From an uncultured Candidatus Saccharibacteria bacterium (GTDB lineage: Bacteria; Patescibacteriota; Minisyncoccia; Phycocordibacterales; CAIZLB01), in contig CAZUJN010000001.1 of the NCBI GenBank assembly GCA_964620475.1, positions 83,497-147,496 on the forward strand: a stretch of DNA of 64,000 nucleotides, in the 5' to 3' direction. The position numbers and the translations under genes are program-made. A model generated the notes under the pieces. It was not told the origin of the DNA. It worked only from the letters and a program-made list of their open reading frames with translations, and did no database searches. Shown here in pieces: positions 19,614-60,482 of this stretch (positions within the stretch are counted from its first letter, which is position 1; every line of letters starts with the position of its first letter).

Positions 19614-20957
19614 ATGAAGAATTGGGTCTTTTTATTTTTATTAACTATGTCTATTGTGTCGGTGTTTTTGGGTTTGAAAAAGTTTCGTGAAAACTCTGAC
19701 TCTCTACAACAGAGATTCGGAGATAAAAAGTTTTTGAAGTTGGATACTGTGATTAGGGTTCAGGGTGAGATTAATCAAAAAGATTATAAAAATATTTTCA
19801 TCGGTGAGGGTAGTGAAAAGTATAAAGTAACAGTTCGTGGTGATATAGAGTCAGGTGATTGTCTTCAGGTCTCGGGTAATGTTTCTATTCCAGAGAATAA
19901 GAAAGGCTCTGAAACTTTGTATGACTTTCCCTACAGAGAATATCTTGCTAAAGATGATATTTATCTTTTGTATAATGTCACCAAGTTTAAGAAAGTTGAT
20001 AGTTGCCGAGCTTTGAGTTTTTATGAAAATGTTAAATTATATTTTCTTAGACAAAAGATAAAAATTACAAAAGTGTTCTTAGAAAAATACGAACAACCTT
20101 ATGCCGGGTTAGTAGCTGGAGTGCTGATCGCGGGTAAGGGGTTGATGAGTGCTGAAACACTTGAATTGTTTAAAAGAGTGAGTTTGTCACATGTGGTGGT
20201 TTTGTCTGGATCAAATGTTTCGATAATAATTTTTTGTATAAAATATTTTTTTGATAATTTATTTTTGATTTTGAGACTTAGGAAAAATTTTATAACAGAA
20301 TTTTTGAAAAAGATTTTAATGATAGTTTTGATTTCTGTTTTTGTTTTGTTGACGGGTGGAGGTGCTCCTATATACAGAGCTTTTGTTTCTTCTGTTTGTG
20401 GTTTGTTAATTTTTAATAATAAAGTTTCTCAACTTTATGCTTTGAATATTGTTGTGATGATTATGACAATCATCAACCCACTTGGAACTTTATATGATCC
20501 ATCATTTCATCTGACATGTTGTGCAACTTATGGACTTATAATGTTTACTGATAGATTTGATAAGATGATAATTTTTTCTAGATTAAATTTTATTCCAAAT
20601 TTTTTAAGAGAGATTATTTCTGTAACTTTAGCAACTCAAGTATTTGTATTTCCATATATTATGTTTATGAGTGGAAGTTTTTCATCGGTGTTTTTGTTGA
20701 GTAATGTTTTTGTTTTACCTTTGATTCCATTTGTGATGTTGTTAGGGTTTATGAGTCTGTTTTCATGGGTTAGTGATTTGTCGGTTTTTATAAATAATAT
20801 AATTCTGAAGATAATATTTTGGGTGGTTGATTTTTTGAGTAAGGTGCCGGGAGGGTATGTTGTGTTTGATAAAAAAGTTTGTGTGGTGATACTTGTGGTT
20901 TATGGGATATTTGTGTTGGGGTTGTTTTGGAAAATGAAAAAGTCCGGGGCTGTGTAG
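19614..20957 (+). CDS. comEC: ComEC/Rec2 competence channel, membrane part (DUF4131 plus Competence domain) without the MBL domain
   Basis: 447 aa. An N-terminal OB-like region, then a polytopic segment with SHVVVLSGSNVSIII (ComEC signature). Confidence 0.7.
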   Translation: MKNWVFLFLLTMSIVSVFLGLKKFRENSDSLQQRFGDKKFLKLDTVIRVQGEINQKDYKNIFIGEGSEKYKVTVRGDIESGDCLQVSGNVSIPENKKGSETLYDFPYREYLAKDDIYLLYNVTKFKKVDSCRALSFYENVKLYFLRQKIKITKVFLEKYEQPYAGLVAGVLIAGKGLMSAETLELFKRVSLSHVVVLSGSNVSIIIFCIKYFFDNLFLILRLRKNFITEFLKKILMIVLISVFVLLTGGGAPIYRAFVSSVCGLLIFNNKVSQLYALNIVVMIMTIINPLGTLYDPSFHLTCCATYGLIMFTDRFDKMIIFSRLNFIPNFLREIISVTLATQVFVFPYIMFMSGSFSSVFLLSNVFVLPLIPFVMLLGFMSLFSWVSDLSVFINNIILKIIFWVVDFLSKVPGGYVVFDKKVCVVILVVYGIFVLGLFWKMKKSGAV

Positions 20958-20985
20958 CTCCGGACTGAGGGGGGGGTGGGGTCTT
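20936..20985 (-). repeat. GC-rich terminator-like repeat, copy H0 (G8 tract plus hairpin), 3' of the minus-strand ORF 20984..21244
   Basis: Read on the minus strand: ccccaccccccccc-tcagtccgg-agctacacagcc-ccggact-tttt. Related to the copies at 43757-43801 and 45017-45069. Confidence 0.5.
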
Positions 20986-21244
20986 ACAAAAATACTCGAT
21001 AGACGGTTATACCAGCCATAATTGGTGGCACGAATACCCAGAAGAAGGCAAGAAATCTTCTGCGGCCTGTGCTGCTAGGAAATACTTTCATTCCCACAGT
21101 GAACACAAATGCGTTTACACATAGCTGTGTGACGGCTGCCGCCCATGTACAACTACCGAAGACTTTCATGTGTATCAATATGAAGACGGATAAACCTGCC
21201 GCTCCTGAGAGTTTCATCCACAAATCTTTTTGTTCAATGTTCAT
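20984..21244 (-). CDS. small membrane protein, hypothetical, with GC above background
   Basis: 86 aa with two or three hydrophobic helices, followed by the H0 element. Confidence 0.3.
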   Translation of the reverse strand: MNIEQKDLWMKLSGAAGLSVFILIHMKVFGSCTWAAAVTQLCVNAFVFTVGMKVFPSSTGRRRFLAFFWVFVPPIMAGITVYRVFL

Positions 21245-21343
21245 AACTATATTATATAATAATAAAATAGTTATGTCAAATAAACAAAACTCTAAAAACC
21301 ACCCAAAACAAAAACCTCGGCTCTCACCAGGGTTCTTGATTGA

Positions 21344-43309: not shown

Positions 43310-43728
43310 TTACATCGCCATTAATATAGCTCCAACAACTATTGCAAGAGCACCTATACTCTTTAATATTGTTAATGATTCGCTTAAGAATAATACTGAT
43401 AATACAAATACGAACACTATACTTGTTCTATCTATAGCCGCTACGGCAGTTACAGGACCAAGTTTTATAGCTAGAAAATAAAATAACCAGGATAATGCCC
43501 CAGATATACCTGAGAGTATTATGAATAATATTGCTTTATTATCTATAGTATTTAGAAAATTAAATTTACCTAATGAGAATGCTGTGATTATTAAAAATAC
43601 AGCCATGACAACAGAGCGTATTGTTGTCGCTAAAGTTGAGTCAATATTTTTTAAACCCATTTTACCGAAGATCGCAACAAGTGCTGCGAATATTGCGGAG
43701 AATAGGGCATAGATGGTCCAGTTCATGA
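43310..43728 (-). CDS. EamA/DMT-superfamily small membrane transporter
   Basis: The likely start is MNWTIYALF (139 aa, four TM helices). The track ORF extends upstream into the GC-rich neighbour's 3' element. Confidence 0.5.
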
Positions 43729-43756
43729 GGTTTATTATACACCTGAAGTTTGGAAA

Positions 43757-43801
43757 ATAAAAAACCGCTGGGACCTTTGTGGGTCCCGAGCGGGGAAGTG
43801 G
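43757..43801 (-). repeat. GC-rich terminator-like repeat, copy H1
   Basis: Minus-strand reading: cccacttccccgctcgggaccc-acaaa-ggtcccagcgg-tttttt. Lies 3' of ORF 43815..44333. Confidence 0.55.
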
Positions 43802-43814
43802 GAAAAGCCGAACA

Positions 43815-44333
43815 TCAATCTTCGTCGAACATCTCCATGAATTCTTTGAGGCGGGATTTGAGATCTTTTCCGACTCGGATTGAAACATTGGCGTCGCCGT
43901 CTTGTCCGTGACCTGGGCCTGGAATGCAAAGGAATTCTTCAAAGCGGATGTATTTGCCATTCTTGGCAGCATCACCGCCGTAGAGGTCGATCAGACCCTG
44001 GCCATCTTCGGCCTCGCACTCACCTGAGAGACCGAAAGCTGTCATCAGATCTTGGGTAGTCATGATAATGAATCCTTCGGTCCAGGTACGAATCAGGCCG
44101 TGGTCCATCTTGTATTTGATCAGCCATTCGCCACCTTCCTTGTCTTGGGGGTGATGGTTTTTGGCAATGGTCATGTTGAGATGTTTGATAGACCCGATGA
44201 CTAATTCTCTGTTTGGAGTGGTGACACTGTTGTATCCACGGATCATCACTTTGTTACCCCCTGGGTGATACCAGATTGGATACCCGGCCAAGGTTCTTCG
44301 AGGGGTGGAGGGTGTGATTTGGTTTGTCGTCAT
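43815..44333 (-). CDS. hypothetical protein encoded by a GC-rich (~50%) gene
   Basis: 172 aa. GC is about 20 points above background. No motif recognised. Confidence 0.4.
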   Translation of the reverse strand: MTTNQITPSTPRRTLAGYPIWYHPGGNKVMIRGYNSVTTPNRELVIGSIKHLNMTIAKNHHPQDKEGGEWLIKYKMDHGLIRTWTEGFIIMTTQDLMTAFGLSGECEAEDGQGLIDLYGGDAAKNGKYIRFEEFLCIPGPGHGQDGDANVSIRVGKDLKSRLKEFMEMFDED

Positions 44334-44430
44334 TGCAATGTTTGTTGAGGTTTCTGACTTTTACAGGTTACAATAAAATGTTGTTTGTGTAAACCATATA
44401 GAATGTGTGTTAAATGTGACACATCTATTT

Positions 44431-44988
44431 TTATTTGATTTGAAAATTAAATTGCCCAGCTATATCTTTTACAAATTCTTCAACTGATACTCCTTTTTTA
44501 TTGGCACTATGCTCAGCTTGCTCTTTATTGTTTACTGAAATTATTTTATCCATTATTGATTTTATCCCTATATCACCAATAACTTTATTATTTGTAACAT
44601 CATAAACTATAGATTGAACATTTAAAGGGGTGCCTGATAGGAAATTTTCTATAGTTGGTTCAAGACCTCGTCTGAGTATAGAGTGTATGCTTTTTAATGG
44701 TATATAATCTATTTCATATTTTGGTCCTATAAGTTTAGGGTTTCCATAACTGTTAACATCCATACTCCATCCGTCAGGTAGAGATATAGGTTGTTCCTCT
44801 TCAACTATAAAATCAAGATCGACATCTTTTGATACAGGTGTTCCATACATCTCTTGTATTATAGAGCGACAAACAAAACCACCTATTAGATATATATTTC
44901 CTTTAGAATTTGATTTTACTATTTCTATAGATTCTTTAAATTCAGGGAAGGTGTTTGCAATTTTTAAAAATGATTCGGTGGGGGACAT
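44431..44988 (-). CDS. minimal nucleotidyltransferase (Pol-beta superfamily) fold protein, probable
   Basis: 185 aa. LIGGFVCRS...SKDVDLDFIV resembles the G[GS]...DhD NTase motif. Confidence 0.35.
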   Translation of the reverse strand: MSPTESFLKIANTFPEFKESIEIVKSNSKGNIYLIGGFVCRSIIQEMYGTPVSKDVDLDFIVEEEQPISLPDGWSMDVNSYGNPKLIGPKYEIDYIPLKSIHSILRRGLEPTIENFLSGTPLNVQSIVYDVTNNKVIGDIGIKSIMDKIISVNNKEQAEHSANKKGVSVEEFVKDIAGQFNFQIK

Positions 44989-45016
44989 GGGATTATTGTA
45001 GCATTGTGTTTAGAGA

Positions 45017-45069
45017 AAATAAAAAACCGCCGGGACCTTGTGTGTCCCGAGCGGGGGGGGCGATTGGGG
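45017..45069 (-). repeat. GC-rich terminator-like repeat, copy H2 (contains a C8 tract on the coding strand)
   Basis: Minus-strand reading: ccccaatcgccccccccgctcgggac-acacaa-ggtcccggcgg-tttttt. Lies 3' of ORF 45079..45603. About 80% identical to H1 over ~40 nt. Confidence 0.55.
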
Positions 45070-45078
45070 ATGTTAATC

Positions 45079-45603
45079 TCATGCAGCATTGGTATCGATT
45101 TTTAATGCGGTTGCCAGCCGTATGAATCTAGCCCAGGCTGTGTTCAATGTGCTAGTCCCGTAGTCGATCAATACTAGCTTACCGTCGATTTTACGCCAAT
45201 TTGATGCGGCTGGGTCATGAGAACCAGAATCACTGAGTAGCTCTTTGAGTTCAGATGGAAGTTTGTCATAAAATTTTTGTATTTCTTCTTGTGTGACATT
45301 TTCTTCCCCTCTGTATCTCTGAAAGTTGATTATACCAATTGTAAATACCGGTTCGATAAACTGTTTGAATGACATGACTTTTGTTACATACCAAGATAGC
45401 ATGCATTCTGATATATTGGATGCCATACCATAAAGTATTGATTCATAAAAGTTTGCAGGGATTGATCGTAAGAATTTCCAAAAACCTCGTCTGAATTCAA
45501 ATGATCTTTTATATTTATCAATACGAAAAGACGGAAACTTGATGACCAATAAGTTGAATAAGATGAGAGCTGTTCTAGAATTACCAAATCTGATTTTGAG
45601 CAT
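45079..45603 (-). CDS. small protein-kinase-like-fold protein (Kdo/lipopolysaccharide-kinase-like catalytic loop)
   Basis: 174 aa. C-terminal SHDPAASNW...LVLIDYG resembles the HxDxxxxN catalytic loop plus a DxG/DYG motif. Only the 3' ~170 nt encoding these motifs is GC-rich. Confidence 0.35.
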   Translation of the reverse strand: MLKIRFGNSRTALILFNLLVIKFPSFRIDKYKRSFEFRRGFWKFLRSIPANFYESILYGMASNISECMLSWYVTKVMSFKQFIEPVFTIGIINFQRYRGEENVTQEEIQKFYDKLPSELKELLSDSGSHDPAASNWRKIDGKLVLIDYGTSTLNTAWARFIRLATALKIDTNAA

Positions 45604-45672
45604 GGTTTTGTTATGTTAGGTTTAACTCAAATACAATACATAAAATATCTAGGTGTGTAAATAGGTGAGATT

Positions 45673-45754
45673 TGACCATTACATGGTCAGTACACCTTTG
45701 CTATTTTTTCAAATTCTGCGAATTTTCGAAAATAAGGTAAAGCTTTTCGAATCT
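45673..45754 (+). repeat. hairpin-containing repeat, copy A (family A/B/C)
   Basis: tgaccattacatggtcagtacacc...gaattctgcgaatt...aagcttttcgaatct. About 80% identical to copy B. Confidence 0.5.
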
Positions 45755-45810
45755 TTAAAAATTCAATAAGTTGAGAGCTCCACAAAGATTGTTTATGATA
45801 TAATCGTTAA

Positions 45811-46359: not shown

Positions 46360-46410
46360 AAAGTTTTATCTTTCGAAAGCTACGCTTTCTCTACACTATA
46401 ATATGTCATT

Positions 46411-46431
46411 GCGGAGGAGGTGAGATTCGAA
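46411..46431 (-). mobile_element. 21-nt duplicate of the tRNA-Ser 3' end (att-type direct repeat; left boundary of the integrated element)
   Basis: gcggaggaggtgagattcgaa is identical to 61977-61997 inside the tRNA-Ser gene. Confidence 0.6.
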
Positions 46432-46524
46432 GCTTACAGCTTCAGTACCACAAGGGCATTTCTCAGAAATAAAGGAGAACCTTTTCGAATCTCTCGAGGA
46501 AGTGCATAGTTGCACTTCCTCTCC
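46429..46524 (+). repeat. hairpin-containing repeat, copy C (tRNA-Ser-like remnant) of family A/B/C
   Basis: gaagcttacagcttcagtacca...ccttttcgaatctc-tcgaggaagtgcatagttgcacttcc-tctcc. Its 3' block matches copy B. Confidence 0.5.
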
Positions 46525-46695
46525 TTACAAAAACAAAAACACCCTTTCGAATGTTTTGTTTTTTGTGGAGGATCGTAGAGTCTATTCGAACTTATTATAT
46601 TAAAAACAGCGCATAACTATGTAAAGTTAATACGCTGTGGTTGAAAGTTTTAAGAGAGTTGAATTCTACGGTTACTTCACCGAGTGGGTATACCA

Positions 46696-47115
46696 CTATT
46701 TAAACAAGTCTTCACCGGCTAGAAACTTGGGGGTTGTCGGCTCGGAGGTGTAGAGCTTGACCGAGTTTTTGAAGATGCTTGTACCTAACTCCTCACCTTC
46801 AATGCCGATTATCGAGAATGCCAGGATACTTTGATCGAAACCAAAGTTGGCATAGGCGACATACCGTTTGCCGTTTAACTCGACAGTTAGCTTTTCTCCT
46901 AGTTTAAACTGGCCTGTAACTGTCATCTTTTTCGACCGAAAAAGATTATTTTCTGGGATCTTATGCCACAACGAACCCTCAACCCTTCCTGATATGTAGG
47001 CACCACTTACAGGACAACGGGTTATTCTATAGAAAGGGAAATCTTTCCAGAGGGTGGAAATTCCGTCAAATCCAACGAGTGAAAAGTGGGTGAGTGTAAA
47101 GGTCTTGGTTTTCAT
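46696..47115 (-). CDS. hypothetical protein encoded by a GC-rich (~45%) gene
   Basis: 139 aa, no motif recognised. Confidence 0.35.
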   Translation of the reverse strand: MKTKTFTLTHFSLVGFDGISTLWKDFPFYRITRCPVSGAYISGRVEGSLWHKIPENNLFRSKKMTVTGQFKLGEKLTVELNGKRYVAYANFGFDQSILAFSIIGIEGEELGTSIFKNSVKLYTSEPTTPKFLAGEDLFK

Positions 47116-47270: not shown

Positions 47271-48107
47271 TTGTTCGTAAAAATTGACAAAATTAAATCA
47301 AAAATATACACTATCTACATGAATAACCAAGATCTAAAAACCAAAGTTGAGCGAGCAGGCTTAACTGATAAAGAATCGGCCACATATAGTGCACTTATTG
47401 AGCTGGGCGGAGCTTTTCCTTCCAAAATAGCCGAATATACAAAACTTAATCGAAGTACTGTATATAAGGTATTATTAGATCTTTCTGTAAAAGGGTTGGT
47501 TAGTGAGATAAAGAAGAAAAATAAGTTGTATTATCAGATTGAAAACCCTACTCGACTTGTAAGATATGCAAAAGATAAGGTAAAGATAGCAGAAGAACAG
47601 TTGGAGTACATGTCTAAACTGGTTCCTCAAATAGAAGGATTATATTCATTACTTTCAAATAAGCCAAAGATTTCATATTTTGAAAATATAGACGGCATCC
47701 TTTCTATATATGAGGATCAAATATCGGGAACCAAGAAATATGAAATGTTAGCATTTTCTAATACAACAGAAATAGAGAATGTTTTTCCGAAAGATTTTTT
47801 CACCAGATATAGAAGAGCAAAAGAGAAAATAGGTATTACAACAAGGGGTCTTATTCCTGATACTGAAAGGGATGAATCATTTGTAAATAGAATGTATGAC
47901 GGATATAAAAAAGAGGTTATTCCTCAGGTAAAATATGTTCCAGCAAAAGATTTTCCATTTAAAGGTGAGATTACTATTTATGGAGATAAAAAAGTTTCTA
48001 TTGTAAATCTAAATAAAGAATATTTTACTGGTCTAATTATTGAAGACCAAACAATTCATAACATGATGAGAATGATATTTGAATTGTCTTGGAAAGGGGT
48101 TAAGTAG
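47271..48107 (+). CDS. TrmB-family winged-helix transcriptional regulator (paralogue-like of 26287..27081)
   Basis: 278 aa. N-terminal HTH ESATYSALIELGGAFPSKIAEYTKLNRSTVYKVLLDL. Confidence 0.5.
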   Translation: MFVKIDKIKSKIYTIYMNNQDLKTKVERAGLTDKESATYSALIELGGAFPSKIAEYTKLNRSTVYKVLLDLSVKGLVSEIKKKNKLYYQIENPTRLVRYAKDKVKIAEEQLEYMSKLVPQIEGLYSLLSNKPKISYFENIDGILSIYEDQISGTKKYEMLAFSNTTEIENVFPKDFFTRYRRAKEKIGITTRGLIPDTERDESFVNRMYDGYKKEVIPQVKYVPAKDFPFKGEITIYGDKKVSIVNLNKEYFTGLIIEDQTIHNMMRMIFELSWKGVK

Positions 48108-48118
48108 GGAAATAGATT

Positions 48119-48235
48119 CGGTCCTTACAGGATCAGTACACCTTTTCTCGTTTTATCGAATTCTACGAATTCTCAAAACATAGAAAAGCTTTTCGAATCT
48201 CCCACGGAAGCAAAGCGGTTTGCTTCCTCTTCTCC
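48119..48235 (+). repeat. hairpin-containing repeat, copy B (family A/B/C), followed by a terminator
   Basis: cggtccttacaggatcagtacacc...gaattctacgaattc...aagcttttcgaatctc-ccacggaagcaaagcggtttgcttcc-tcttctcc. Confidence 0.5.
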
Positions 48236-48446: not shown

Positions 48447-49628
48447 ATGATTGAGGATTTAAACAAACACCTAACAGATCAAGAATTCTTCACCTATGCG
48501 AAGTTTTTTGACATGGTTATAAACAAAAAGAACCTCGCTGATGAAGACCAAAGAGAAATTGGTGTATATCAGTTTTCTATTGGCGAAGATGAGTCATATA
48601 GACGATTTCGTAGACTTTTCAATTTCATCAAATACCAAGACTTGCCAGTCAAAATCTCTGAATCAAGATACAACAAACTGGAAGAAATGATTGGTTCGTA
48701 CGCAAAAGGAAAAGACGCGAAAGGTGCAGGAATGCCGACAAAAGAAGATCTAGATACTATTTGCGAAAAGATAAATAACGGTAAGCCTATAAAATTTTCA
48801 GAGACAGGAATGCTGTCATGGGCATGGTTTGAGGTGTATGACTCCACTCATTTTTTGCCACATCAATACGAGATTTCTAATGAAGTAAAATCGAATGTTA
48901 AAAAAGAATTTGATACATATCTAGAGAATCTCATAAACGGCAAGCTCTCTATCGCTAAGGATAACTACTACAAGTTCAACATCCTAAAAGAAGCGTTCAT
49001 CCAAATGATTGAGCGAAAGGGTGTTTTGAAATTATTTGGCAAAAACTTTGTCATCAAAGAAGAATTAAACAATGAAGGAAACCTAAAGAGTGACCCTAAC
49101 TTTTGCATTGTGCAAACGGTATATGCCTTACAACACCTAGGATACCTGACGGTGAACAATATCTGGAGAGATGACGAGTACAAAGAACAATACAGTAGTT
49201 CGAGCAATATCCGATATTTCATATCAATCAATGTGACAATTGAGGATAGTTTCATTTCTGAAATAAACGACAGATACAAGAAAGCGAATCCAAAAAACGT
49301 GATCGAAGGATTCGACAAACCGAAAGGAATCTTAAAATTCGCAGGTGAGGAAATAATCCTTTCACTCAAAGGTAAAGAAACGGATGCATCCCTCCTTATG
49401 AATACCTTGTACAAAAAAGAAGATACGGAATGGATCTATAACGACGAGATTTTTGAGGATTGGAAGTTTAACCAAGCTGACATCCTGAAAAGTCCTAAAA
49501 ACAAGATATATTTCGCTGCCAAAAAGATAAATGAAAAGGTAGCGATGAAGACCAAAATCGAGGATTTTATTGAATTTACCACTGAAAAAGCAAGGATAAA
49601 TCCTCGCTACAACAAAGTTGACGAATAA
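48447..49628 (+). CDS. hypothetical protein (island cargo)
   Basis: 393 aa, GC about 40%, no motif recognised. Confidence 0.4.
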   Translation: MIEDLNKHLTDQEFFTYAKFFDMVINKKNLADEDQREIGVYQFSIGEDESYRRFRRLFNFIKYQDLPVKISESRYNKLEEMIGSYAKGKDAKGAGMPTKEDLDTICEKINNGKPIKFSETGMLSWAWFEVYDSTHFLPHQYEISNEVKSNVKKEFDTYLENLINGKLSIAKDNYYKFNILKEAFIQMIERKGVLKLFGKNFVIKEELNNEGNLKSDPNFCIVQTVYALQHLGYLTVNNIWRDDEYKEQYSSSSNIRYFISINVTIEDSFISEINDRYKKANPKNVIEGFDKPKGILKFAGEEIILSLKGKETDASLLMNTLYKKEDTEWIYNDEIFEDWKFNQADILKSPKNKIYFAAKKINEKVAMKTKIEDFIEFTTEKARINPRYNKVDE

Positions 49629-49719
49629 TATATAAATCGCAATAAATTTTTATAAATAGCCATCATATATCCTGAAGTCATCCTTCGGGATTTATTAATT
49701 AGCTAAATATAAAAGTTAT

Positions 49720-51015
49720 ATGCAAAAGCAAAAACTCATATGGTCAGTTACAACCCGCAAAGTGAGTGATCTGACAAAAAACGGATACAATCCGAGAAAG
49801 ATAAGCGAGAGCGAAAAGAGAGACTTGGAAAAGTCTATTAAGGAATTCGGGACGGTCGTTCCTGTAATCCTTAATATTGGTTTGAGAGCCAATGTCATTA
49901 TCGGCGGTGAGCAAAGAGTAAAGATATATGCTGATCTCGGTATGGAAGAGATCGAGTGTATGGTACCCTCTCGGGAACTGACACCTAAAGAAGAAAAAGA
50001 GCTTAACCTCCGTTTGAACAAAAACACAGGGTCATGGGATGAAAACCTTCTCAAGGAATTCGATATGGACATGCTCCTTGGTGTAGGTTTTGGCGATGAA
50101 GAATTGCAAAGCCTGTTTGATGATGTAGATATGGTCGAGGATGACTTTGATATTGAAAAAGCTGTCAAAGAAACCATAACTGCTAAAGTGAAGACTGGAG
50201 AAATCTGGGAACTCGGAAAGCATAGGTTGCTTGTTGGGGATTCTACTGATGTCACATCCGTACAAAAACTTATGGATGGAAAACTTGCAGACATCGTGTA
50301 CTGCGATCCGCCATACAACATTGGACTCGACTATTCAAAAGGTGTCGGCAACAAAGAAAAATATCAAGGGTCATATTCCGCAAAGGATGATTCGAAAAAG
50401 GATACTGACTATCTCGATTTCATAGATAAAAGTATTGATGTGGCAAAGACCGTAGCCAAGAAGGATTCCCACTTCTTCTACTGGTGCGACTCTTCGTATA
50501 TTTGGATCACACAGAATCTATACCAAAAGCACGGTATAGATAGTAAACGTGTCTGCATGTGGATCAAGAATAATCAGAATCCCACTCACAAGATTGCGTT
50601 CAATAAAGTATATGAACCATGCGTATACGGAACTATCGGCAAGCCATATCTCAATTCAGCAATGAACAATGTTAATGAGATTCTCAATCAGGAAGTGACC
50701 ACCGGCAATCAGGTACATGATGAGATTCTAGACATGATAGATATTTGGATTGAGAAAAGAGACAACGCTCAAACATATCAACATCCAACTCAAAAGCCTG
50801 TAACGCTCAATGAAAAACCACTCAAAAGATGCAGTGCTCCGCTTCATATTGTGTATAGCGGATTTGCGGGTAGCGGTAGTGATTTGATTGCTTGCGAAGA
50901 ATTAAATCGTGTTTGGTATGGAGTCGAAAAGGATTTGATTTTCGCAACCATCGTTATAGACCGATGGGAAAAGTTTACTGGCCTTAAAGCAAAGAAAATA
51001 TATGAAAATAACTAA
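49720..51015 (+). CDS. ParB/Srx-like nuclease domain fused to an N6-adenine/N4-cytosine DNA methyltransferase (DPPY class)
   Basis: 431 aa. N-terminal NPRKISE...IIGGEQRV (ParB-like). Methyltransferase motif IV VYCDPPYNIG and motif I GFAGSGSDLIACEELNR. Confidence 0.85.
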   Translation: MQKQKLIWSVTTRKVSDLTKNGYNPRKISESEKRDLEKSIKEFGTVVPVILNIGLRANVIIGGEQRVKIYADLGMEEIECMVPSRELTPKEEKELNLRLNKNTGSWDENLLKEFDMDMLLGVGFGDEELQSLFDDVDMVEDDFDIEKAVKETITAKVKTGEIWELGKHRLLVGDSTDVTSVQKLMDGKLADIVYCDPPYNIGLDYSKGVGNKEKYQGSYSAKDDSKKDTDYLDFIDKSIDVAKTVAKKDSHFFYWCDSSYIWITQNLYQKHGIDSKRVCMWIKNNQNPTHKIAFNKVYEPCVYGTIGKPYLNSAMNNVNEILNQEVTTGNQVHDEILDMIDIWIEKRDNAQTYQHPTQKPVTLNEKPLKRCSAPLHIVYSGFAGSGSDLIACEELNRVWYGVEKDLIFATIVIDRWEKFTGLKAKKIYENN

Positions 51016-51751
51016 AGGAGATATTTTCAAGATCGGCAATCATATTATCGGTTGTGGTGATTCTACCGACAGAGAATTTGTAGCTAAAGTAATCGGGAAG
51101 AACAAGATACGAGCCATCATTTCTGACCCACCTTATGGAGTTGCATATGTTGAAAACAAGAAAGGCTTTGCGAAACTTGGTGTTAAGGACGAGAAAATAA
51201 TTGTCGGCGATCATTTGCAGAGCGAATCTGAATATGAAGATTTCACCAGAAAGTATCTTGGTGCCGTTATTCCATATCTCGATGACTACAATGCATGCTA
51301 CATATTTAACGCCGATCCGATGTTTCCATCTCTCCGTAAAGGCATGAAAGATGCGGGTTTCTATTACAGCCAGATGATTATTTGGATTAAGAATCAACCT
51401 GTCATGAGTAGAAAAGACTACCTTTCGCAATATGAACTAATTGCATATGGATGGTTTGGCAAGCACAAAATGGAAAGATCTAAATCAAAGAATGTTATTT
51501 ATCACCCACGACCAAACAGATCAAGACTTCACCCTACACAAAAGCCGATAGGGCTACTTAGAAAGATAATTCCAGACGCAACATGCGTCGGTGACTTTAT
51601 CTATGATCCGTTTCTCGGAAGTGGATCAACTGCTATTGCATCGGAACATTTAGGTCGAAAATGTATCGGTATAGAAATAGATGAAGTGTATGTTTCCGTC
51701 GTTCTACAAAGACTTGAAAAGCTAACTGGTCAAAAACCAATAAAGATATAA
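51002..51751 (+). CDS. N6-adenine/N4-cytosine DNA methyltransferase (DPPY class)
   Basis: 249 aa. ISDPPYGVAY and DPFLGSGSTAIASEHLGRKCIGIEID. Confidence 0.85.
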   Translation: MKITKGDIFKIGNHIIGCGDSTDREFVAKVIGKNKIRAIISDPPYGVAYVENKKGFAKLGVKDEKIIVGDHLQSESEYEDFTRKYLGAVIPYLDDYNACYIFNADPMFPSLRKGMKDAGFYYSQMIIWIKNQPVMSRKDYLSQYELIAYGWFGKHKMERSKSKNVIYHPRPNRSRLHPTQKPIGLLRKIIPDATCVGDFIYDPFLGSGSTAIASEHLGRKCIGIEIDEVYVSVVLQRLEKLTGQKPIKI

Positions 51752-51755
51752 CAGT

Positions 51756-52130
51756 ATGAACGAGGAAGACTTCATAAAAGATCCATACAAAAAGCAAACA
51801 TACGATACGTATGCTCTTTGGAAGTCTCTGCCCTCATTTCTCAAGGGACAGCCGAGAGTTGCTCTCGAAAAGTTTGGTATTAATGAAGAAATTGTATTTG
51901 AGTTGCTATCCATAAAAAATCAAACTGAGTTCTCAAAAATATACAAAACAGATGTCGGCACATTGACCGACTGGAACAAGAGACTTGAGAAAGATGGATT
52001 GACTAAAGACATCAACAGCTGGGCAAGAAAGCTTACTCCTAACGTCATATTTGCCCTGTATAAAAATATCACAAAGCATGGTCGAGCTCATGAGGTGAGA
52101 GCATGGTATGAATTAATTGAAAACAACTAA
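51756..52130 (+). CDS. hypothetical small protein with a possible HTH
   Basis: 124 aa. TEFSKIYKTDVGTLTDWNKRL is HTH-like. Translationally coupled to the methyltransferase genes. Confidence 0.35.
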   Translation: MNEEDFIKDPYKKQTYDTYALWKSLPSFLKGQPRVALEKFGINEEIVFELLSIKNQTEFSKIYKTDVGTLTDWNKRLEKDGLTKDINSWARKLTPNVIFALYKNITKHGRAHEVRAWYELIENN

Positions 52131-52326
52131 TATGAAAAACATTGATCTAAAAGAAATAAATATCATTCTCTCTGACACATTGCAAAAAGTTGTGAATAGA
52201 GAGATCTCACATAAACAAGCGAACATGGTCGCTAAGCTTGCCTCTACACTTTCTAAAAACATTGTGAATACCGAACTCAAAGAGCGAGTTGAATTTTTGG
52301 AGCAAGCACTTAAAGGAAAGAAATAA
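52117..52326 (+). CDS. hypothetical small helical protein
   Basis: 69 aa. Overlaps its neighbours by 14 nt upstream and lies 3 nt from the next gene. Confidence 0.3.
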   Translation: MKTTNMKNIDLKEINIILSDTLQKVVNREISHKQANMVAKLASTLSKNIVNTELKERVEFLEQALKGKK

Positions 52327-52328
52327 TT

Positions 52329-53813
52329 ATGAAAAATCTAGCAAACCTATTAAGAAAAGCAGACATCACTCCAAGAGAAAGAATGATAACCTTGGTGCAA
52401 AATAGTGTTTATAAAGAAAAGGACGGCAAGAGTATTCTTTCCGAATCGGAGATATATTCTTTGACGGAGGGGTGGAAGCCGAAAACTTCTCAGGAAGTAA
52501 GGGAGTATAACAAGTACTTGGAACTGTCTAAACTAGAAGCTTCGATGAGATTAGATGCTCAAATGTTTGCGTGTAGATCCGAGAATCTGCTACTACGAAG
52601 TCATATACTGATTGAGGGAATAAAAAGTGATATAGGAAAAACTCATGATGCAATTTTAGATAAATATGTATCAAAAGAAGATGCCCTGAACTTTGTCATA
52701 CAAAATACTTATCTCGACTATTCAACGCTTGTTCACATACTCACTTTCAACAACCTACCGAAAGATATTCAGGATGATTTGATTATGTTAGATGAGTATG
52801 TAGCACATGATAAAAAGTATTTGGAAGATGAGGTCTTTCTTTATGAATTGTTCAAAGATTCAAGTACTCTAAATACAAAAGATAAAAATATCTTGATAGA
52901 CCGTATCTATTCGTGTATGTATCACGATGGTTTTAGAAAGATTAAAAATGGAACAGAAAAAGATGGTTTCTTGCCACTCCATTTCTTTGCTGAGTTACCA
53001 ATGGATGCTGTGCTGAAAAAATGGGCAGAATACAGCCAGACAGATATCGAGGGGAAAGATAATGGTTATATACTAGATAAATTTGAGGAGTACGCAAAAA
53101 GTAGAGGTAAAACCATGGAGATATTTGTAAAGGAAACACTATCGAAGTGGATAGATGAAGGTTTGTTTGTGTCGGAATATACCCCAGTATTTTTTAGTAA
53201 TAAACACAATACATGGAATGGTGATACTAAATTTATACACAAAGAGATTTTTACCAAATGGCACGAAGAATTACAGAAGACCAAAACATCGATAGACAAA
53301 ATGGGTGCTAATGGAGATTTGGTTGTGGAGCAATTTGATAAGGAAATTTTTGGAACCACAGAGAAGGTTCAGATAGTTACTGGGGAAAGTTTGTATAGAT
53401 GCAAATCTGATATTGACTTTGTGAATGAATACAAGGAGCAGGTGACTGTACTCCTACCTATCGCAGGGACGTGTTTGTTTATGAAGAAATATAATAAGCC
53501 GTTAGATAATCTTGAAACACTAAAATGTTTTTACGAATTATCTAAAACATTTTCGGATGTATTTGAAATTGATATGTCAGATAAATATGATGATTTTGTG
53601 AGTTCGTTTGAACAGGAGATCAAACTCATCAATCATTCAATATCCATTGCATTAGATAATGTGAGTGGTTTTATATATACAAAAATGAACAAAAAATACC
53701 CAATAGAGATCATCGAGAATAATTTTACTTTTGATATTGATACAGAATCAGAAAATAAAGCCGATGGTATTATTGAAAGTTATAAAGGAGCATTTCAGAA
53801 AATTGGGTTTTAA
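52329..53813 (+). CDS. hypothetical protein (494 aa), island cargo
   Basis: No Walker, nuclease or HTH motif recognised. Last gene of the plus-strand methyltransferase operon. Confidence 0.4.
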   Translation: MKNLANLLRKADITPRERMITLVQNSVYKEKDGKSILSESEIYSLTEGWKPKTSQEVREYNKYLELSKLEASMRLDAQMFACRSENLLLRSHILIEGIKSDIGKTHDAILDKYVSKEDALNFVIQNTYLDYSTLVHILTFNNLPKDIQDDLIMLDEYVAHDKKYLEDEVFLYELFKDSSTLNTKDKNILIDRIYSCMYHDGFRKIKNGTEKDGFLPLHFFAELPMDAVLKKWAEYSQTDIEGKDNGYILDKFEEYAKSRGKTMEIFVKETLSKWIDEGLFVSEYTPVFFSNKHNTWNGDTKFIHKEIFTKWHEELQKTKTSIDKMGANGDLVVEQFDKEIFGTTEKVQIVTGESLYRCKSDIDFVNEYKEQVTVLLPIAGTCLFMKKYNKPLDNLETLKCFYELSKTFSDVFEIDMSDKYDDFVSSFEQEIKLINHSISIALDNVSGFIYTKMNKKYPIEIIENNFTFDIDTESENKADGIIESYKGAFQKIGF

Positions 53814-53815
53814 GA

Positions 53816-54568
53816 TTATTTACCCTTCCAGTGCACCGCTCGATTTTCGATAAACATCATTATTTTGTTGAGAGCAAAACCAATCACACCAGTCATGAGG
53901 ATGGCGGCATACATATCTGCTGTTTGATAGACTAATTGTGCATCAATAATGCGTTTTCCAAGCCCAGCATTGGTCCCAATAAACATTTCAGTCACGATGA
54001 CAATTATAAGTGAGAGTGAAATTGCCACACGAAAACCTGAAAAGATTTGTGGTAATGCTTCTGGAAAAATCACTTTGCGAAAAAGTTCGAATCCTTTTAC
54101 TTTCATTGTTTTAGCGACACGCACTCGTAATTCCTTGCCGAGATGTACCCCATACATGGAGTTTATGAGAATGACCAATCCTGCACCCCAAGCAGTGACA
54201 GCAAATTTAGCCTCATCGCCGATTCCAAAGACAAGGAGAAACAGTGGGAAAAGCGCAGTCGTTGGAATACCTCGAAAAAACTCGACAGTAAATTCAAGAG
54301 CGTTATAGACTTTGCTTGAGTAACCCATCAGAAGACCAAGTGGGACTCCGATAATAGTTGCAAAAATAAAACCAACAAGAACACGATACAGGGTGTGTCC
54401 GATGTCGCTTAACATTGATCCATTCAGTAGTGAATCAATGAGGTGATTGGAAACATCATATGGAGATGCCAAGAATAAAGGACTGACAAGTTTGAAATAT
54501 GAAATGATCCACCAGAGGCAGAGTAAAATTGTCGGTATGAGTATGTAATATAATTTCTTATTTTTCAT
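53816..54568 (-). CDS. ABC transporter permease (NitT/TauT, SsuC/TauC/ThiX-like)
   Basis: Likely start MKNKKLYYILIP. Six TM helices and an EAA-like loop. Confidence 0.75.
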   Translation of the reverse strand: MKNKKLYYILIPTILLCLWWIISYFKLVSPLFLASPYDVSNHLIDSLLNGSMLSDIGHTLYRVLVGFIFATIIGVPLGLLMGYSSKVYNALEFTVEFFRGIPTTALFPLFLLVFGIGDEAKFAVTAWGAGLVILINSMYGVHLGKELRVRVAKTMKVKGFELFRKVIFPEALPQIFSGFRVAISLSLIIVIVTEMFIGTNAGLGKRIIDAQLVYQTADMYAAILMTGVIGFALNKIMMFIENRAVHWKGK

Positions 54569-55310
54569 ATTCGAAGGTATTAAGAATTGCGTTTCGAAGT
54601 TCAGTAAATTCAGGACTTGAAAGCATATCAAGTGTTCGAGGACGAGGGAGTTTTACTTCAAAAATCTTTTTAATTTTTGCTGGTCGTGGAGACAGAACAA
54701 TCACTCTATCAGCGAGAAATATAGCTTCGTCAATATCATGACTTACAAACAAAGTTGTTATTTTTTTCTCTTGCCAGATATCAAGAAGCTCCAACTCCAT
54801 TTTTCTAGTAGTTGAATAATCAAGAGCAGAAAATGGCTCATCCATGATCAGAATGTCAGGATCATAAGCAATTGAACGACATATAGAAACAAGTTGACGT
54901 TGTCCCCCAGAGAGTTCATAGACAAATTTATCCTTTGAATTAAGCAAACCCACTTTATTTAAAAGATGCTCGGCAATTTTGTATTGTTTTTCTTTATCTA
55001 CTTTTGCTATTTCAAGCGGAAATATAATATTTTCTAAAACGGTTCTCCAAGGAAAAAGACTTTCGTTGTAATTCTGAAAAACAAAACCTACTTGTGCATC
55101 CTTTGGGTTTTTACCGCTAACCATGACTTCACCTGATTCAGGAGTTTCAATACCAGCGACGATATTAAGTAGCGTTGTTTTACCTGATCCATTCGGACCA
55201 AAAACAGTTACAAATTCTCCTTTATTAACTTCAAGATTAATACCATCAATAACCCTGGTGTCGCCAGAATCTTTTTTAAAGGTTTTAGTTATTCCAACAA
55301 GTGAAATCAT
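54558..55310 (-). CDS. ABC transporter ATP-binding protein
   Basis: 250 aa. Walker A GPNGSGKTTLL, signature LSGGQRQ, Walker B ILIMDEPFSALD. Confidence 0.85.
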   Translation of the reverse strand: MISLVGITKTFKKDSGDTRVIDGINLEVNKGEFVTVFGPNGSGKTTLLNIVAGIETPESGEVMVSGKNPKDAQVGFVFQNYNESLFPWRTVLENIIFPLEIAKVDKEKQYKIAEHLLNKVGLLNSKDKFVYELSGGQRQLVSICRSIAYDPDILIMDEPFSALDYSTTRKMELELLDIWQEKKITTLFVSHDIDEAIFLADRVIVLSPRPAKIKKIFEVKLPRPRTLDMLSSPEFTELRNAILNTFEYEK

Positions 55311-55316
55311 TACCGT

Positions 55317-56273
55317 TTATTTGTAATATGCGTTAGTTAAATCTGGTTTTGATTTGAACTCTCCAGAAGCCACTAAAATATCAAGCAACTTATTGGTTAA
55401 AGTTTTATCAATCTGTTGTGAATTTCTAAAATATGTCATTCCGAGAACGTCGACAACTTTCTGGTCTAGCTTAAAGATTGTTTTTGTCATACCCCTAACA
55501 TCTTTGTCGTTGGTACGTAGATAATCAAAGGCCTTATCAAAAGCATTAACTACTTTTTTTGCTTCACGTGGATACTTATTTACAAACTGAGTGCTTACAA
55601 GTGCTACCCCCAATGGGCTGTGATCTAACTGTTCAGAATAAACAGAACCATAGACCTTCCTTATTCCACCGCTTGTAAGTGCGATAGATATTGTTGGTTC
55701 ATATGTGAATAAAGCATCAATCGATCCTGCGGTAAGTGCTGTGAGATGTTGTGGTGGTGGTAATTGCACAAACTGAATAGTAGAAGAATCAATGCCTTTA
55801 TCTTTTAGAAAAAGTTTAAACATATTTGAAGCACTTGTACCTGGGAATACTCCGATTTTTTTACCTTTCAAATCCTCAAGGGTCCTAATAGGAGAGCTTT
55901 CCTTTACCAAAAGAGAATCAAATGGAACGTCACTTGTAATGTCAGTTAAAGCGATAATTTTCATTTTTCCAGGATCAACCATTTCTGCGTTTAAATATGG
56001 AAGTATAGAAATTTCGGGAGTAACATCTATATCACCTCGTGCAAGTGCATCAACAATTTGATTTGAGGTTTGAAGTAGTGTGGTTTGAACAGTAATGCCC
56101 TGATCCTCAAAAAACTTTTTTTGCTGAGCAATCTCTAAAGGAAGTTGGCTTGCTGTAATCGGTAAATACCCGATTTTTACAACATAATCAGACGGTTTAT
56201 TAGATCTTAAAAAAAATACGCTGAGTATAACTAAAATTATAAGTGTTCCGATGATTAAAAATGGTTTTTTCAT
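55317..56273 (-). CDS. ABC substrate-binding protein (NMT1/THI5-like, SsuA/ThiY-like)
   Basis: Likely start MKKPFLIIGTLIIL (signal anchor), then a periplasmic-binding-protein type 2 fold. Confidence 0.65.
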   Translation of the reverse strand: MKKPFLIIGTLIILVILSVFFLRSNKPSDYVVKIGYLPITASQLPLEIAQQKKFFEDQGITVQTTLLQTSNQIVDALARGDIDVTPEISILPYLNAEMVDPGKMKIIALTDITSDVPFDSLLVKESSPIRTLEDLKGKKIGVFPGTSASNMFKLFLKDKGIDSSTIQFVQLPPPQHLTALTAGSIDALFTYEPTISIALTSGGIRKVYGSVYSEQLDHSPLGVALVSTQFVNKYPREAKKVVNAFDKAFDYLRTNDKDVRGMTKTIFKLDQKVVDVLGMTYFRNSQQIDKTLTNKLLDILVASGEFKSKPDLTNAYYK

Positions 56274-56422
56274 AGTAATAAAAATTAAGTTATTAATAAA
56301 ATTTCCTGTTTTAAAAGATGGTCTCATTGTACCATAAAAAATGACTTTTCCATAATTAAAATACGCCCAAAATAAATTTAAGCGTCATAACCCCTATTCA
56401 AATTACTAACTATTAAAAATAG

Positions 56423-57121
56423 TTACAAAACATTGTTCTCCTTACCCAAAACCACCCGATTAAGATACATGAAAGGAATGTTTATTAGTCCGACTAACCA
56501 TTTGACAGCAGTTTGTCCAATTATAAGGGGCATTATTGGTAAGGCTCCCAAGAAAGCTATTGGAATAAATATTAGACTATCCAGAAGTAGTGCTGGTATC
56601 GAACTGAAGACATTTCTTGCCCATAAATGTTTGCCTTTAGTAAATTTTTTGAACCAAGCATACACATATGCATCAAAATTCTCAGTTATAAGGAAGGCAA
56701 TCCAGCTAGCAATGGTAATCCTTGGTACTAGATTGAAAATTTGTTCCCATGATCCCTGCATTGTCCAAAATGGTGCCGCAGGCAATTTTACACCAAGCCA
56801 AAAGAAAAACACCATTGCGATTTGAGATACAAAAGCAATGAGAATCATTTTTGATACTTCCTTTCTACCAAATTTTTCATTTACAATATCTGTAAAAAGA
56901 TACGTGATAGAGAAAACAAGTACTCCACTCGGACCAAAGAATGTGCTGAATCCCAGATCGAAAGCAGAGATCTTGGCGGCTAAGACTTGGGCTACAAGAA
57001 CAAACGTGACGTATAATCCAATAAGTAAATCCGATCGGTTATATTTTCGAGCATACAAACTCCCGAGAAGTGTAAAACTAGTGATACCTACAATCCAGAT
57101 AATTAATAAGTATAAGCTCAT
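56423..57121 (-). CDS. yhhQ: YhhQ/COG1738 (VUT family) transporter, a queuosine-precursor (preQ0/preQ1) transporter family
   Basis: 232 aa, about six TM helices. YLFTDIVNEKFGRKEVSKMI matches the conserved YhhQ TDxxNExYG motif. Confidence 0.65.
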   Translation of the reverse strand: MSLYLLIIWIVGITSFTLLGSLYARKYNRSDLLIGLYVTFVLVAQVLAAKISAFDLGFSTFFGPSGVLVFSITYLFTDIVNEKFGRKEVSKMILIAFVSQIAMVFFFWLGVKLPAAPFWTMQGSWEQIFNLVPRITIASWIAFLITENFDAYVYAWFKKFTKGKHLWARNVFSSIPALLLDSLIFIPIAFLGALPIMPLIIGQTAVKWLVGLINIPFMYLNRVVLGKENNVL

Positions 57122-57128
57122 ATATTAT

Positions 57129-57848: not shown

Positions 57849-57853
57849 ATTTT

Positions 57854-58174
57854 TTAATCCTCAATCCAAACCTGTGCTGGACGATGTGCATCAGAATGTT
57901 TTATGTCAATAAATATTTTTAGATATTTAGGTTTAATAGATTCTTTTACTTGCAGATAAATTTGATGGGCCAACTCTTCAGCAGTAATTTTATTTTTAGC
58001 AATTTCATTTACAGCTCGCTCAGCATCGACATATTCAAGAACTTTCTTCTTGGGATAGTACTCAACGATAACATCACCAGAAAACTCTTTATCCGTAACC
58101 GAACAAATTGCCTTAAACGGTAAAAATATCTTTGTGCCACTGATCTTGAAATTTAATGAGATTGTTTTAATCAT
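57854..58174 (-). CDS. T-fold protein, QueF-like
   Basis: 106 aa. LPFKAICSVTDKEFSGDVIVEYYPKKKVLE aligns with QueF [30 protein letters not shown] (Cys conserved). The QueF E(S/L)K(S/A)hK(L/Y)(F/Y/W) motif is not preserved. C-terminal LKIFIDIKHSDAHRPAQVWIE is a T-fold-type strand. Confidence 0.4.
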   Translation of the reverse strand: MIKTISLNFKISGTKIFLPFKAICSVTDKEFSGDVIVEYYPKKKVLEYVDAERAVNEIAKNKITAEELAHQIYLQVKESIKPKYLKIFIDIKHSDAHRPAQVWIED

Positions 58175-58175
58175 T

Positions 58176-59081: not shown

Positions 59082-59147
59082 AAGTTACCAACTCCTGCCG
59101 TGTGAGACGCCTAGACTTCCTCAGGGGTTTGCGTCATCAATGTAGGT

Positions 59148-60473: not shown

Positions 60474-60482
60474 ATTTTAATA

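Follow-up and report, generated by a model that had tools for sequence, protein, structure and literature searches.

Why should three short ORFs that encode mutually unrelated proteins be followed by hairpins that resemble one another? The question is raised by the window, the 64,000-nucleotide stretch of DNA analysed here as a whole, in which the elements H0, H1 and H2 lie on the minus strand behind ORF_0, ORF_C and ORF_A, respectively. A preliminary description had reported all three elements and the unrelatedness of the three proteins, and on both counts it holds. We suggest, with a probability of roughly 0.8, that the sequences are Rho-independent terminators that make up a small paralogous family on accessory ORFs, and that the units to which they belong are exchanged without a dedicated site-specific recombinase.

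The anatomy of the elements is that of intrinsic terminators. H1 (43753..43814) is predicted to terminate the 172-aa ORF_C, H2 (45015..45078) the 174-aa ORF_A, and H0 (20931..20983) the 86-aa ORF_0. In H1, a pyrimidine-rich, G-poor spacer (43814-43794) that ends in CCCaCTTCC leads into the stem-loop CCGCT-C-GGGACC/cacaaa/GGTCCC-AGCGG (43793-43765) and the U-tract T6-A-T4-C (43764-43753). H2 follows the same plan with a CCCC...C8 spacer (G8 on the plus strand, 45053-45060), the stem-loop CCGC-T-CGGGAC/acacaag/GTCCCG-GCGG (45054-45027) and the U-tract T6-A-T4-C (45026-45015), as does H0 with a CCCC-A-C8 spacer (G8 on the plus strand, 20969-20976), the stem-loop GTCCGGAGCT/acac/AGCCCCGGAC (20965-20942) and the U-tract T5-C-A-T4 (20941-20931). 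Each stem is GC-rich, with 9-11 pairs, a loop of 4-7 nt and one bulged base, and each is preceded by a C-rich spacer that lacks G or, in H1, is poor in it. The T5 or T6 begins 0 nt past the stem and is followed by (A/C)ATTTT. The stems start 17-24 nt past the stop codon on the coding strand, rather than immediately after it as had been described. RNAfold gives -20.7 kcal/mol for H1 (z = -3.4), -18.6 kcal/mol for H2 and -15.7 kcal/mol for H0 (z = -5.8), with z between -2.7 and -5.8 across the three hairpins, and an independent terminator scan flagged H1 and H2. We infer from these features that the elements would terminate transcription in vivo. A C8/G8 run had been attributed to every copy; H0 and H2 do carry it, while H1 has C3 and C4 instead. 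No G8/C8 runs occur in the window other than the two adjoining H0 and H2, against about 0.05 expected by chance, and the C8 run of H2 is the same in three independent assemblies.

Similarity among the three elements extends beyond a shared anatomy. H1 and H2, which are 1.26 kb apart, match at 40 of 43 positions (93%, BLAST E ~4e-10), a likeness that had been noticed before and put too low, at about 80% over 40 nt. The claim that all three copies align is likewise borne out, since the local alignment of H0 with H1 exceeds those of dinucleotide shuffles (p = 0.001) and that of H0 with H2 was matched by 0 of 2000 shuffles. The stem of H0 differs from those of H1 and H2, and the features that it shares with them are a C4-N-C8 spacer, an ACAC loop and T5-N-ATTTTCCAAA. 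Across the family, the C-run and TTTTT-N-ATTTTCC(AAA) are conserved outside the stem, and the frame is kept while the stem sequence varies. Two further strong terminators, at 16181-16213 and 27938-27965 of the window, bear at most a marginal likeness to the H elements (p 0.03-0.88), and native AT-rich genes there have other hairpins, flanked by A-tracts. Run over the 64 kb with filters off, a covariance model of the family recovered only H2 (77 bits), H1 (75.4 bits) and H0 (55.4 bits), the next match scoring 13.8 bits. Neither the hairpins nor the neighbouring repeats correspond to an Rfam family. H0, H1 and H2 are thus real elements, with H0 a weaker but significant relative. H0 lies 23 kb from the other two, behind an unrelated ORF, and its likeness to them is not accounted for by generic terminator constraints or by local gene conversion.

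The ORFs themselves share little. ORF_C (43815..44333, minus strand) is a real gene whose differences between relatives fall mostly at the third codon position (88 at position 3 versus 18 at position 2). Its family is large, with 440 clusters at 50% identity, and lacks annotation; ORF_C has no Pfam match. With 5 sequences the AF2 model was poor (pLDDT 50); with 50 sequences it reached a pLDDT of 93, and Foldseek found no PDB fold match to it. No relative of ORF_C turned up in the viral collection. ORF_A (45079..45603, minus strand) is an orphan that retrieves only itself and one fragment among 5.8 billion proteins; the idea that it might be a frameshifted copy of ORF_C was tested and rejected. 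ORF_0 (20984..21244, minus strand) is likewise an orphan, in a one-member cluster, and is probably a small membrane protein, with a TATAAT 6 nt upstream of its ATG. ORF_B (44431-44988, minus strand) sits between H2 and ORF_C and lacks a family hairpin. Searches of Pfam, PHROGs, PADLOC and PDB sequences returned nothing usable for any of these four ORFs. In a window that averages 32% GC, the 45-52% that had been claimed for the three hairpin-bearing ORFs fits ORF_C (49.7%, and 47-50% in four relatives) and does not fit ORF_A (36.8%, with only its 3' end reaching 47-50%); ORF_0 has 43.3%. ORF_C is compositionally odd, as its description as foreign-looking implied, but it has been inherited vertically together with its hairpin in this lineage, down to 67% amino-acid identity.

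Comparison with relatives indicates what is kept at the ORF_C locus. A hairpin with a T-run occupies the matching place in all five related contigs that carry the 172-aa ORF (L004, L005, L006, L138 and L139), at -19.1 to -21.5 kcal/mol, so that the seven family members together span -15.7 to -21.5 kcal/mol. L004 and L005 share a compensatory change from T-A to G-C in the outer stem, and the stem that L006 carries there is altogether different; this hairpin nevertheless scores 35.6 bits with the covariance model, although it was absent from the training set. These changed stems at an orthologous site suggest that structure rather than sequence is kept, as far as so few independent sequences can indicate. 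H1 is about 80% alike to its L004 orthologue, against 93% for H1 and H2. The L138 orthologue of H1 bears H2-type features, namely a C8 run and the GGTCCCGGCGG arm, and L004, which lacks ORF_A, still has the T-run of H2 and its 3' arm in degenerate form. Downstream of H1 lies a gene for an EamA-family transporter (43310..43726, minus strand; PF00892, E = 1e-19), with TGTATAAT 7 nt upstream of its ATG, and the order of H1 and this gene is the same in L005, L006 and L138. The -10 box of the next gene lies 3' of H1, as it does of H2, and H1 may insulate the promoter of the EamA-family gene against read-through.

The ORFs and hairpins come and go together. Between sod and comEC, a strain-specific insert of about 400 nt (20931..21343, minus strand) holds a new sod terminator (CCCTGGT/gaga/GCCGAGG + T5), an AT-rich promoter, ORF_0, a C-run and H0, and the last 9 codons and the stop codon of comEC are the antisense strand of H0. 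In three relatives that are 96.5-97% identical (L135, L136 and L137), this slot is empty, with sod and comEC overlapping and 10 nt in place of the insert. The 3' edge of the insert is the last T of the H0 U-tract, which abuts a CCAAAA that is also found in relatives without the insert, and the identity of comEC drops from 0.96 through 0.88 to about 65% as the junction is approached. At the second slot, upstream of ORF_C, a 1268-bp segment comprising ORF_A, H2 and ORF_B (44386..45661, minus strand) is bounded by an 8-bp direct repeat, TTTACACA, whose copies (45661-45654 and 44393-44386) overlap the -35-like TTTACA of two promoters, one being the promoter-like match TTTACA-17-TATTGT at 45661-45633. 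L138, a 92.5% relative, and L139 both lack this segment. The slot is empty in L138, holds ORF_B in L006, ORF_B with a gene of 79 aa in L004, and both ORF_A and ORF_B in the window. Neither slot carries a mobility gene inside it, and the indel junctions show 6-8 bp of microhomology. Each of these indels may represent either a gain or a loss. A 5' flank shared by the ORF_A and ORF_C units, as in a cassette with two conserved ends, was considered and is not significant (p = 0.18); an apparent link between these flanks in L138 is the junction at the 8-bp repeat.

Taken together, these observations suggest a simple scheme. Each H element would end the transcription of a short accessory ORF through a GC-rich RNA hairpin and the U-tract behind it, and H1 and H2 would in addition shield the following gene, whose -10 box and near-leaderless start lie 20-30 nt beyond. 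The hairpins would be inherited or exchanged with their ORFs as self-contained promoter-ORF-terminator units occupying strain-variable slots of an AT-rich, Parcubacteria-type genome that is presumably naturally competent; comEC and type IV pilus/T2SS-type genes are present. Units would probably be gained and lost by homologous or microhomology-mediated recombination, and the near-identity of H1 and H2 would be best explained by duplication or by gene conversion within the locus. The preliminary description had allowed for a lineage-specific terminator family that travels with its ORFs, and that suggestion fits the terminator anatomy, the orthologous hairpins in five contigs, and the presence and absence of whole units. 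The one detail that falls outside this scheme is the C-run, as intrinsic terminators are not known to require one directly 5' of the stem.

The alternative that survives best concerns only the origin of the likeness, as it too would treat the hairpins as terminators. The accessory ORFs could have come from one GC-richer pool, such as the mobile elements of the lineage, in which a terminator style is shared. An element common to three unrelated ORFs that are GC-richer than the genome would be expected from such a donor, as would the resemblance of H0 to H1 and H2 across 23 kb and the arrival of ORF_0 and H0 as a single unit, and in L138 the 172-aa ORF lies directly beside island genes homologous to window positions 49275-52372. 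However, across the window's own island region (48-62 kb) the covariance model detects no H-type element, and the vertical descent of ORF_C with its hairpin also speaks against such a pool. Nor did the collections searched yield further copies. Exact and degenerate searches with the H1/H2 core gave one match in GTDB genomes, an ordinary bidirectional terminator in Paenibacillus at about chance level, and nothing in JGI metagenomes or IMG/VR. A metagenome scan for the frame C8-N24-30-T5NATTTTC returned at least 120 loci, and among the matches listed all were low-complexity noise without a comparable hairpin. We therefore regard a common donor pool as possible but unlikely.

A more ambitious proposal gives the element a role in insertion. 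The C-run, hairpin and T5-N-ATTTTCCAAA might form the 3' signature of lineage-specific promoter-ORF-terminator modules that circulate among Parcubacteria, the conserved 3' end providing homology or recognition for insertion in a cassette system without an integron integrase. Pointing to this proposal, the ORF_0 insert stops exactly at the U-tract, and the CCAAA tail of the family coincides with the CCAAAA at the target. We nonetheless consider the module proposal improbable.

We think it likewise improbable that the element is itself a REP- or MITE-like mobile repeat, as the preliminary description had allowed, a palindrome of about 50-60 nt that inserts itself 3' of genes and for which termination is a secondary role. 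At the density of three copies in 64 kb, a megabase would hold tens of them, and the conserved flanks outside the stem, like the frame kept around varying stem sequences, are in keeping with such a repeat, as is the general resemblance to REP/BIME, Correia and RUP repeats, which are also repeated palindromes 3' of genes with a terminator-like fold. The three copies are, however, all tied to ORF units; we see no solo copies in the 64 kb, no independent insertions, and no terminal inverted repeats or target-site duplications around the hairpins. H0 would have been gained with an ORF and promoter in a single indel, and in the five related contigs the hairpin remains a stable, orthologous companion of ORF_C. 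About 45 kb of relatives' DNA yielded no copy outside the ORF_C locus by the covariance model, and no further copies were found in two contigs that extend past the window ends, one from the same sample (by about 1.4 kb) and one from a 96.5% relative (by about 4 kb).

It is very unlikely that the C-run and GC-rich stem are kept as a dual-purpose structure, with a G-quadruplex on the opposite strand or variation in homopolymer length modulating transcription, replication, or the expression of convergent or downstream genes. When loops of up to 20 nt are allowed, the two strands of the window contain just three G4-type motifs, on the plus strands of H0, H1 and H2, but long loops are needed and the G-runs are hairpin arms, so that the pattern may be a by-product. 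Run length does vary, from C4 in the window's H1 to C8 in its 92.5%-identical relative; the run lies between stop codon and stem, however, where a change has no obvious consequence, and the spacers of L004, L005 and L006 are mixed C/T without C-runs. Finally, integron attC sites, which the preliminary description had also proposed, share with H0, H1 and H2 an imperfect hairpin with one bulged base behind unrelated short ORFs and the presence or absence of units between strains, yet this reading fails on the features that define such sites and is highly improbable, as no R/L core boxes, whether R'' (RYYYAAC) or R' (GTTRRRY), occur at or near any copy on either strand, the element, with a length of only some 45 nt, is of the wrong size and has a U-tract at its end, each ORF has a -10 or -35-like sequence of its own, the ORFs form no contiguous promoterless array (H0 being 23 kb off), no IntI, attI or cassette array is seen in the window, the indel junctions show microhomology rather than attC x attI products, and Pfam scans or precomputed annotation of about 55 ORFs there reveal no integron integrase or other tyrosine recombinase, the sole recombinase found being a large serine recombinase 14 kb away (59148-60473).

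If the terminator-family reading is true, the finding is a routine one. It would document the style of intrinsic terminators in one lineage of the candidate phyla radiation (CPR) and show that small accessory genes are exchanged at fixed slots in the form of insulated promoter-ORF-terminator units, which would help modestly in the annotation of CPR genomes and in working out how such reduced, competent genomes acquire genes. It would amount to the discovery of a mobile element only if insertion turned out to be directed by the shared C-run and tail.

Two further known systems bear comparison, one with the hairpins and one with the units. With intrinsic terminators, the H elements share a GC-rich stem-loop near the stop codon, an interrupted U-tract directly 3' of it, and a structure that is kept while its sequence changes. 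Bidirectional terminators have an A-tract 5' of the stem; the H elements differ from intrinsic terminators in general by a G-free C-run (C4-C8) in that position, and by the sequence that three copies behind unrelated ORFs share outside the stem. For the units, a parallel is offered by the minimal mobile elements of Neisseria, which are summarised in PMC2784325 (citing Snyder et al. 2007) as variable genes between conserved flanks, exchanged by transformation and homologous recombination. Measured against that summary, the units described here are similarly small, lack mobility genes, and occupy fixed slots (sod/comEC and the tRNA-Ser region/EamA) that vary between close relatives, in a genome that has competence genes and in which divergence rises toward one junction. 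They differ in that each is a single ORF of 86-174 aa that comes with a promoter of its own and a family-type terminator, and in having junctions with 6-8 bp microhomologies, transformation being assumed in our case.

The three GC-rich hairpin elements on the minus strand, H0 (20931-20983; ccccaCCCCCCCCtcaGTCCGGAGCTacacAGCCCCGGACtttttcattttccaaaac), H1 (43753-43814; ttcccacttCCCCGCTCGGGACCcacaaaGGTCCCAGCGGttttttattttccaaac) and H2 (45015-45078; ccccaatcgCCCCCCCCGCTCGGGACacacaagGTCCCGGCGGttttttattttctc), follow an 86-aa ORF (ORF_0, 20984-21244), a 172-aa ORF (ORF_C, 43815-44333) and a 174-aa ORF (ORF_A, 45079-45603), respectively, and judging from their sequence they are most likely intrinsic terminators. 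Each consists of a G-free, pyrimidine-rich spacer, a GC stem-loop, and a T5-6 run followed by (A/C)ATTTT, with the stem starting 17-24 nt after the stop codon and the T-run beginning directly at the stem end. The stem-loops fold at -15.7 to -20.7 kcal/mol (z -2.7 to -5.8), and H1 and H2 were independently flagged by a separate terminator scan. TGnTAtAAT boxes lie ~20-25 nt 3' of H1 and H2, and the next ATGs, those of an EamA transporter after H1 and of the 185-aa ORF_B (44431-44988, minus strand) after H2, fall 6-7 nt past these boxes, so the hairpins sit where a terminator would insulate the downstream promoter. The native AT-rich genes of the window also end in hairpin and T-run terminators, but these are A-tract-flanked and of a different kind. 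GC-richer ORFs at 15937-16161, 27160-27915 and 46696-47115 have strong GC hairpins of their own, outside the H family. The ORFs in these regions (15937-16213, 27160-27965 and 46607-47115; GC 49%, 45% and 44%) lack a family assignment, and each has its GC hairpin and T-run after it; two adjoin TrmB-type regulator genes (26287-27081, 47271-48107).

The window has a GC content of 32%, and its genes include RecJ, RNase H, ComEC, Fe/Mn-SOD, ribosomal proteins and type IV pilus/T2SS-type genes. Along with a homologue of one local gene that is labelled 'Parcubacteria group bacterium', these features indicate a candidate-phyla-radiation (Patescibacteria) genome that was assembled from a metagenome. 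Many genes have a TATAAT-type or TATAAT-like box 6-9 nt 5' of the ATG (e.g. 1987, 13902, 16818, 17293, 21244, 43726, 44988), and near-leaderless starts look normal in this genome. Across the whole window, no Shine-Dalgarno sequence is evident at the start codons with such boxes, a combination suggestive of leaderless or near-leaderless transcription on a wide scale. Several accessory ORFs and the EamA gene share an AAACCTC motif just 5' of their ATG.

A preliminary description had noticed three similar elements behind unrelated ORFs, and this observation is real and mostly right, with corrections. H1 and H2 share 93% identity across 43 nt; H0 has a different stem, and it aligns with both better than dinucleotide shuffles do (p = 0.001 against H1; 0 of 2000 shuffles against H2). 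Compared with the H elements, two further strong terminators of the window reach marginal similarity at most (p 0.03-0.88), and a family covariance model, applied to the window with filters off, recovers H0, H1 and H2 at 55-77 bits, with the next match at 13.8 bits. Comparison bears out that the three upstream proteins are unrelated to each other. The C8/G8 tract ascribed to all three elements is present at H0 and H2 but not at H1, which has C3+C4, and the high GC ascribed to all three ORFs holds for the 172-aa ORF (49.7%), roughly for the 86-aa ORF (43.3%), and not for the 174-aa ORF (36.8%). The runs beside H0 and H2 are the only G8/C8 runs in 64 kb, where ~0.05 are expected; the C8 of H2 recurs unchanged in three independent assemblies and so is not an artefact of assembly.

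Close homologues of ORF_C occur on five other contigs from related genomes, with 67-74% amino acid identity on L004, L005 and L006 and 94% on L138 and L139. Purifying selection on the gene shows in the differences among relatives, 88 at third codon positions versus 18 at second. Downstream of ORF_C on each contig come a CT-rich spacer, a hairpin (-19 to -21.5 kcal/mol) and a T-run. On L004 and L005 the outer stem pair has changed from T-A to G-C, and on L006, which was not in the training set, a wholly different stem (CTGCGCAG...CTGCGCAG) scores 35.6 bits with the covariance model. Across these copies the hairpin's structure and position are kept and its sequence is not, the pattern expected if a working terminator is passed on together with its gene. 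The L138 orthologue has C8 in place of the C4 of H1, so the run length varies between 92.5%-identical genomes. The ORF_C family is large and unannotated (440 clusters at 50% identity); an AlphaFold model from 50 sequences (pLDDT 93) is a mixed beta-sheet with a C-terminal helix, and neither a Pfam match for the protein nor a PDB fold match for the model (Foldseek) was found. ORF_C GC is held at 47-50% in ~30% GC genomes despite near-saturated synonymous divergence.

The ORF-plus-hairpin units are mobile in a loose sense. On L138 and L139, ORF_C comes directly after a structured repeat, SR, and the 1268 bp with ORF_A, H2 and ORF_B are missing; in the window the segment has the direct repeat TTTACACA at both ends, overlapping a -35-like TTTACA in two promoters. 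L006 has ORF_B without ORF_A. L004 has ORF_B and an extra 79-aa gene, and upstream of its ORF_B a T-run and the 3' arm of an H2-like hairpin, now degenerate, remain, with the 5' arm and ORF_A missing. This remnant implies that H2 predates the split from L004, yet H2 is more similar to H1 than H1 is to its own L004 orthologue, a pattern that favors gene conversion, or else repeated exchange, between the neighboring copies.

At the second slot, three contigs 96.5-97% identical to the window (L135-L137) have convergent, overlapping sod and comEC genes, with 10 nt at the place where the window has a ~400-nt segment that contains, in order, a new sod hairpin terminator, an AT-rich promoter, ORF_0, a C-run and H0. 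The segment's 3' edge is the last T of the H0 U-tract, abutting a CCAAAA found in both forms; the consensus tail of the H family is also ATTTTCCAAA, which places the junction within microhomology. The last codons of comEC are encoded by the antisense of H0. Over the last 500 nt of comEC, identity between the two forms drops from 0.96 to 0.88, and it is ~65% across the last 19 codons before the junction, a gradient that fits import of a divergent tract.

Other parts of the window also vary. Where the window has 23174-23183, its 96.5% relatives (L135, 2441-3883) have a TrmB-like gene and a 132-aa ORF between the L28 gene and the next, and at 8510-8859 an 81-aa AT-rich ORF stands in place of their 195-aa GC-richer ORF (L132, 2727-3477). 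A genomic-island-like block (48447-62064) adjoins tRNA-Ser (61975-62064, minus strand) and contains a Shedu SduA-type defence gene (60483-61871), a large serine recombinase (59148-60473), a ParB-N6/N4 methylase with a second methylase (49720-51751), and several unassigned ORFs of 36-40% GC. ORF_B lies almost directly after tRNA-Ser on L006, making ~16 kb extra in the window, and on L138 a version of the methylase block with 66% identity lies next to ORF_C. The ~110-130-nt SR repeat (45660-45760, 46410-46530 and 48105-48235 in plus-strand coordinates; L006 234-392; L138 7832-7942) directly follows tRNA-Ser on L006, and in the window its copies separate small gene blocks between the island and ORF_A. 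Its minus-strand 3' end copies that of tRNA-Ser(tga) (TTCGAATCTCACCTCCTCCGC), nearly exactly in SR2 and L006. The copies have a common three-stem fold, with 7 pairs showing compensatory changes, and no Rfam match; probably they represent att/tRNA fragments displaced in serial integrations, or else an RNA of another kind.

A lineage-specific cassette signature or small mobile repeat has a small probability as an explanation of the H elements. H0 resembles H1 and H2 despite a distance of 23 kb and an unrelated upstream ORF, a C-run directly 5' of the stem is common to H0, H2 and the L138 copy, and ORF_C stays at 47-50% GC in every lineage, among neighbors of 29-33%, with no sign of drift to genome composition. 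Likewise, the only three G-quadruplex-type motifs on either strand of the 64 kb (loops up to 20 nt; 20946-20981, 43770-43802 and 45032-45069, plus strand) each correspond to the antisense strand of an H element, and these may be a by-product of a C-run beside a GC stem. Set against such a reading, no hairpin was seen as a solo copy, and neither inverted-repeat termini nor target duplications flank the hairpin by itself; similarity between the ORF_A and ORF_C units in their 5' flanks falls short of significance (p = 0.18), leaving no two-ended cassette frame. No wider H family was found in GTDB genomes, JGI metagenomes (among the matches listed) or IMG/VR, where the lineage is so barely represented that absence is weak evidence. 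The attC-like and MITE-like readings of the preliminary description are not supported. Evidence against attC sites comprises no RYYYAAC or GTTRRRY boxes in or beside any copy, elements too short for an attC site and ending in a U-tract, promoter-like sequences upstream of the ORFs themselves, and no tyrosine recombinase among ~55 ORFs scanned or annotated, the large serine recombinase being the only recombinase.

The same description had offered a terminator family co-transferred with its ORFs, and this is supported by the anatomy, the retention of the hairpin in relatives, and the presence or absence of whole units. As terminators, the hairpins would end transcription of small accessory genes and shield adjacent promoters, and the units would be gained and lost at fixed intergenic slots via homologous or microhomology-mediated recombination, a route made plausible by the organism's ComEC and pilus genes. 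Gain and loss of this kind would parallel the minimal mobile elements of Neisseria (PMC2784325).
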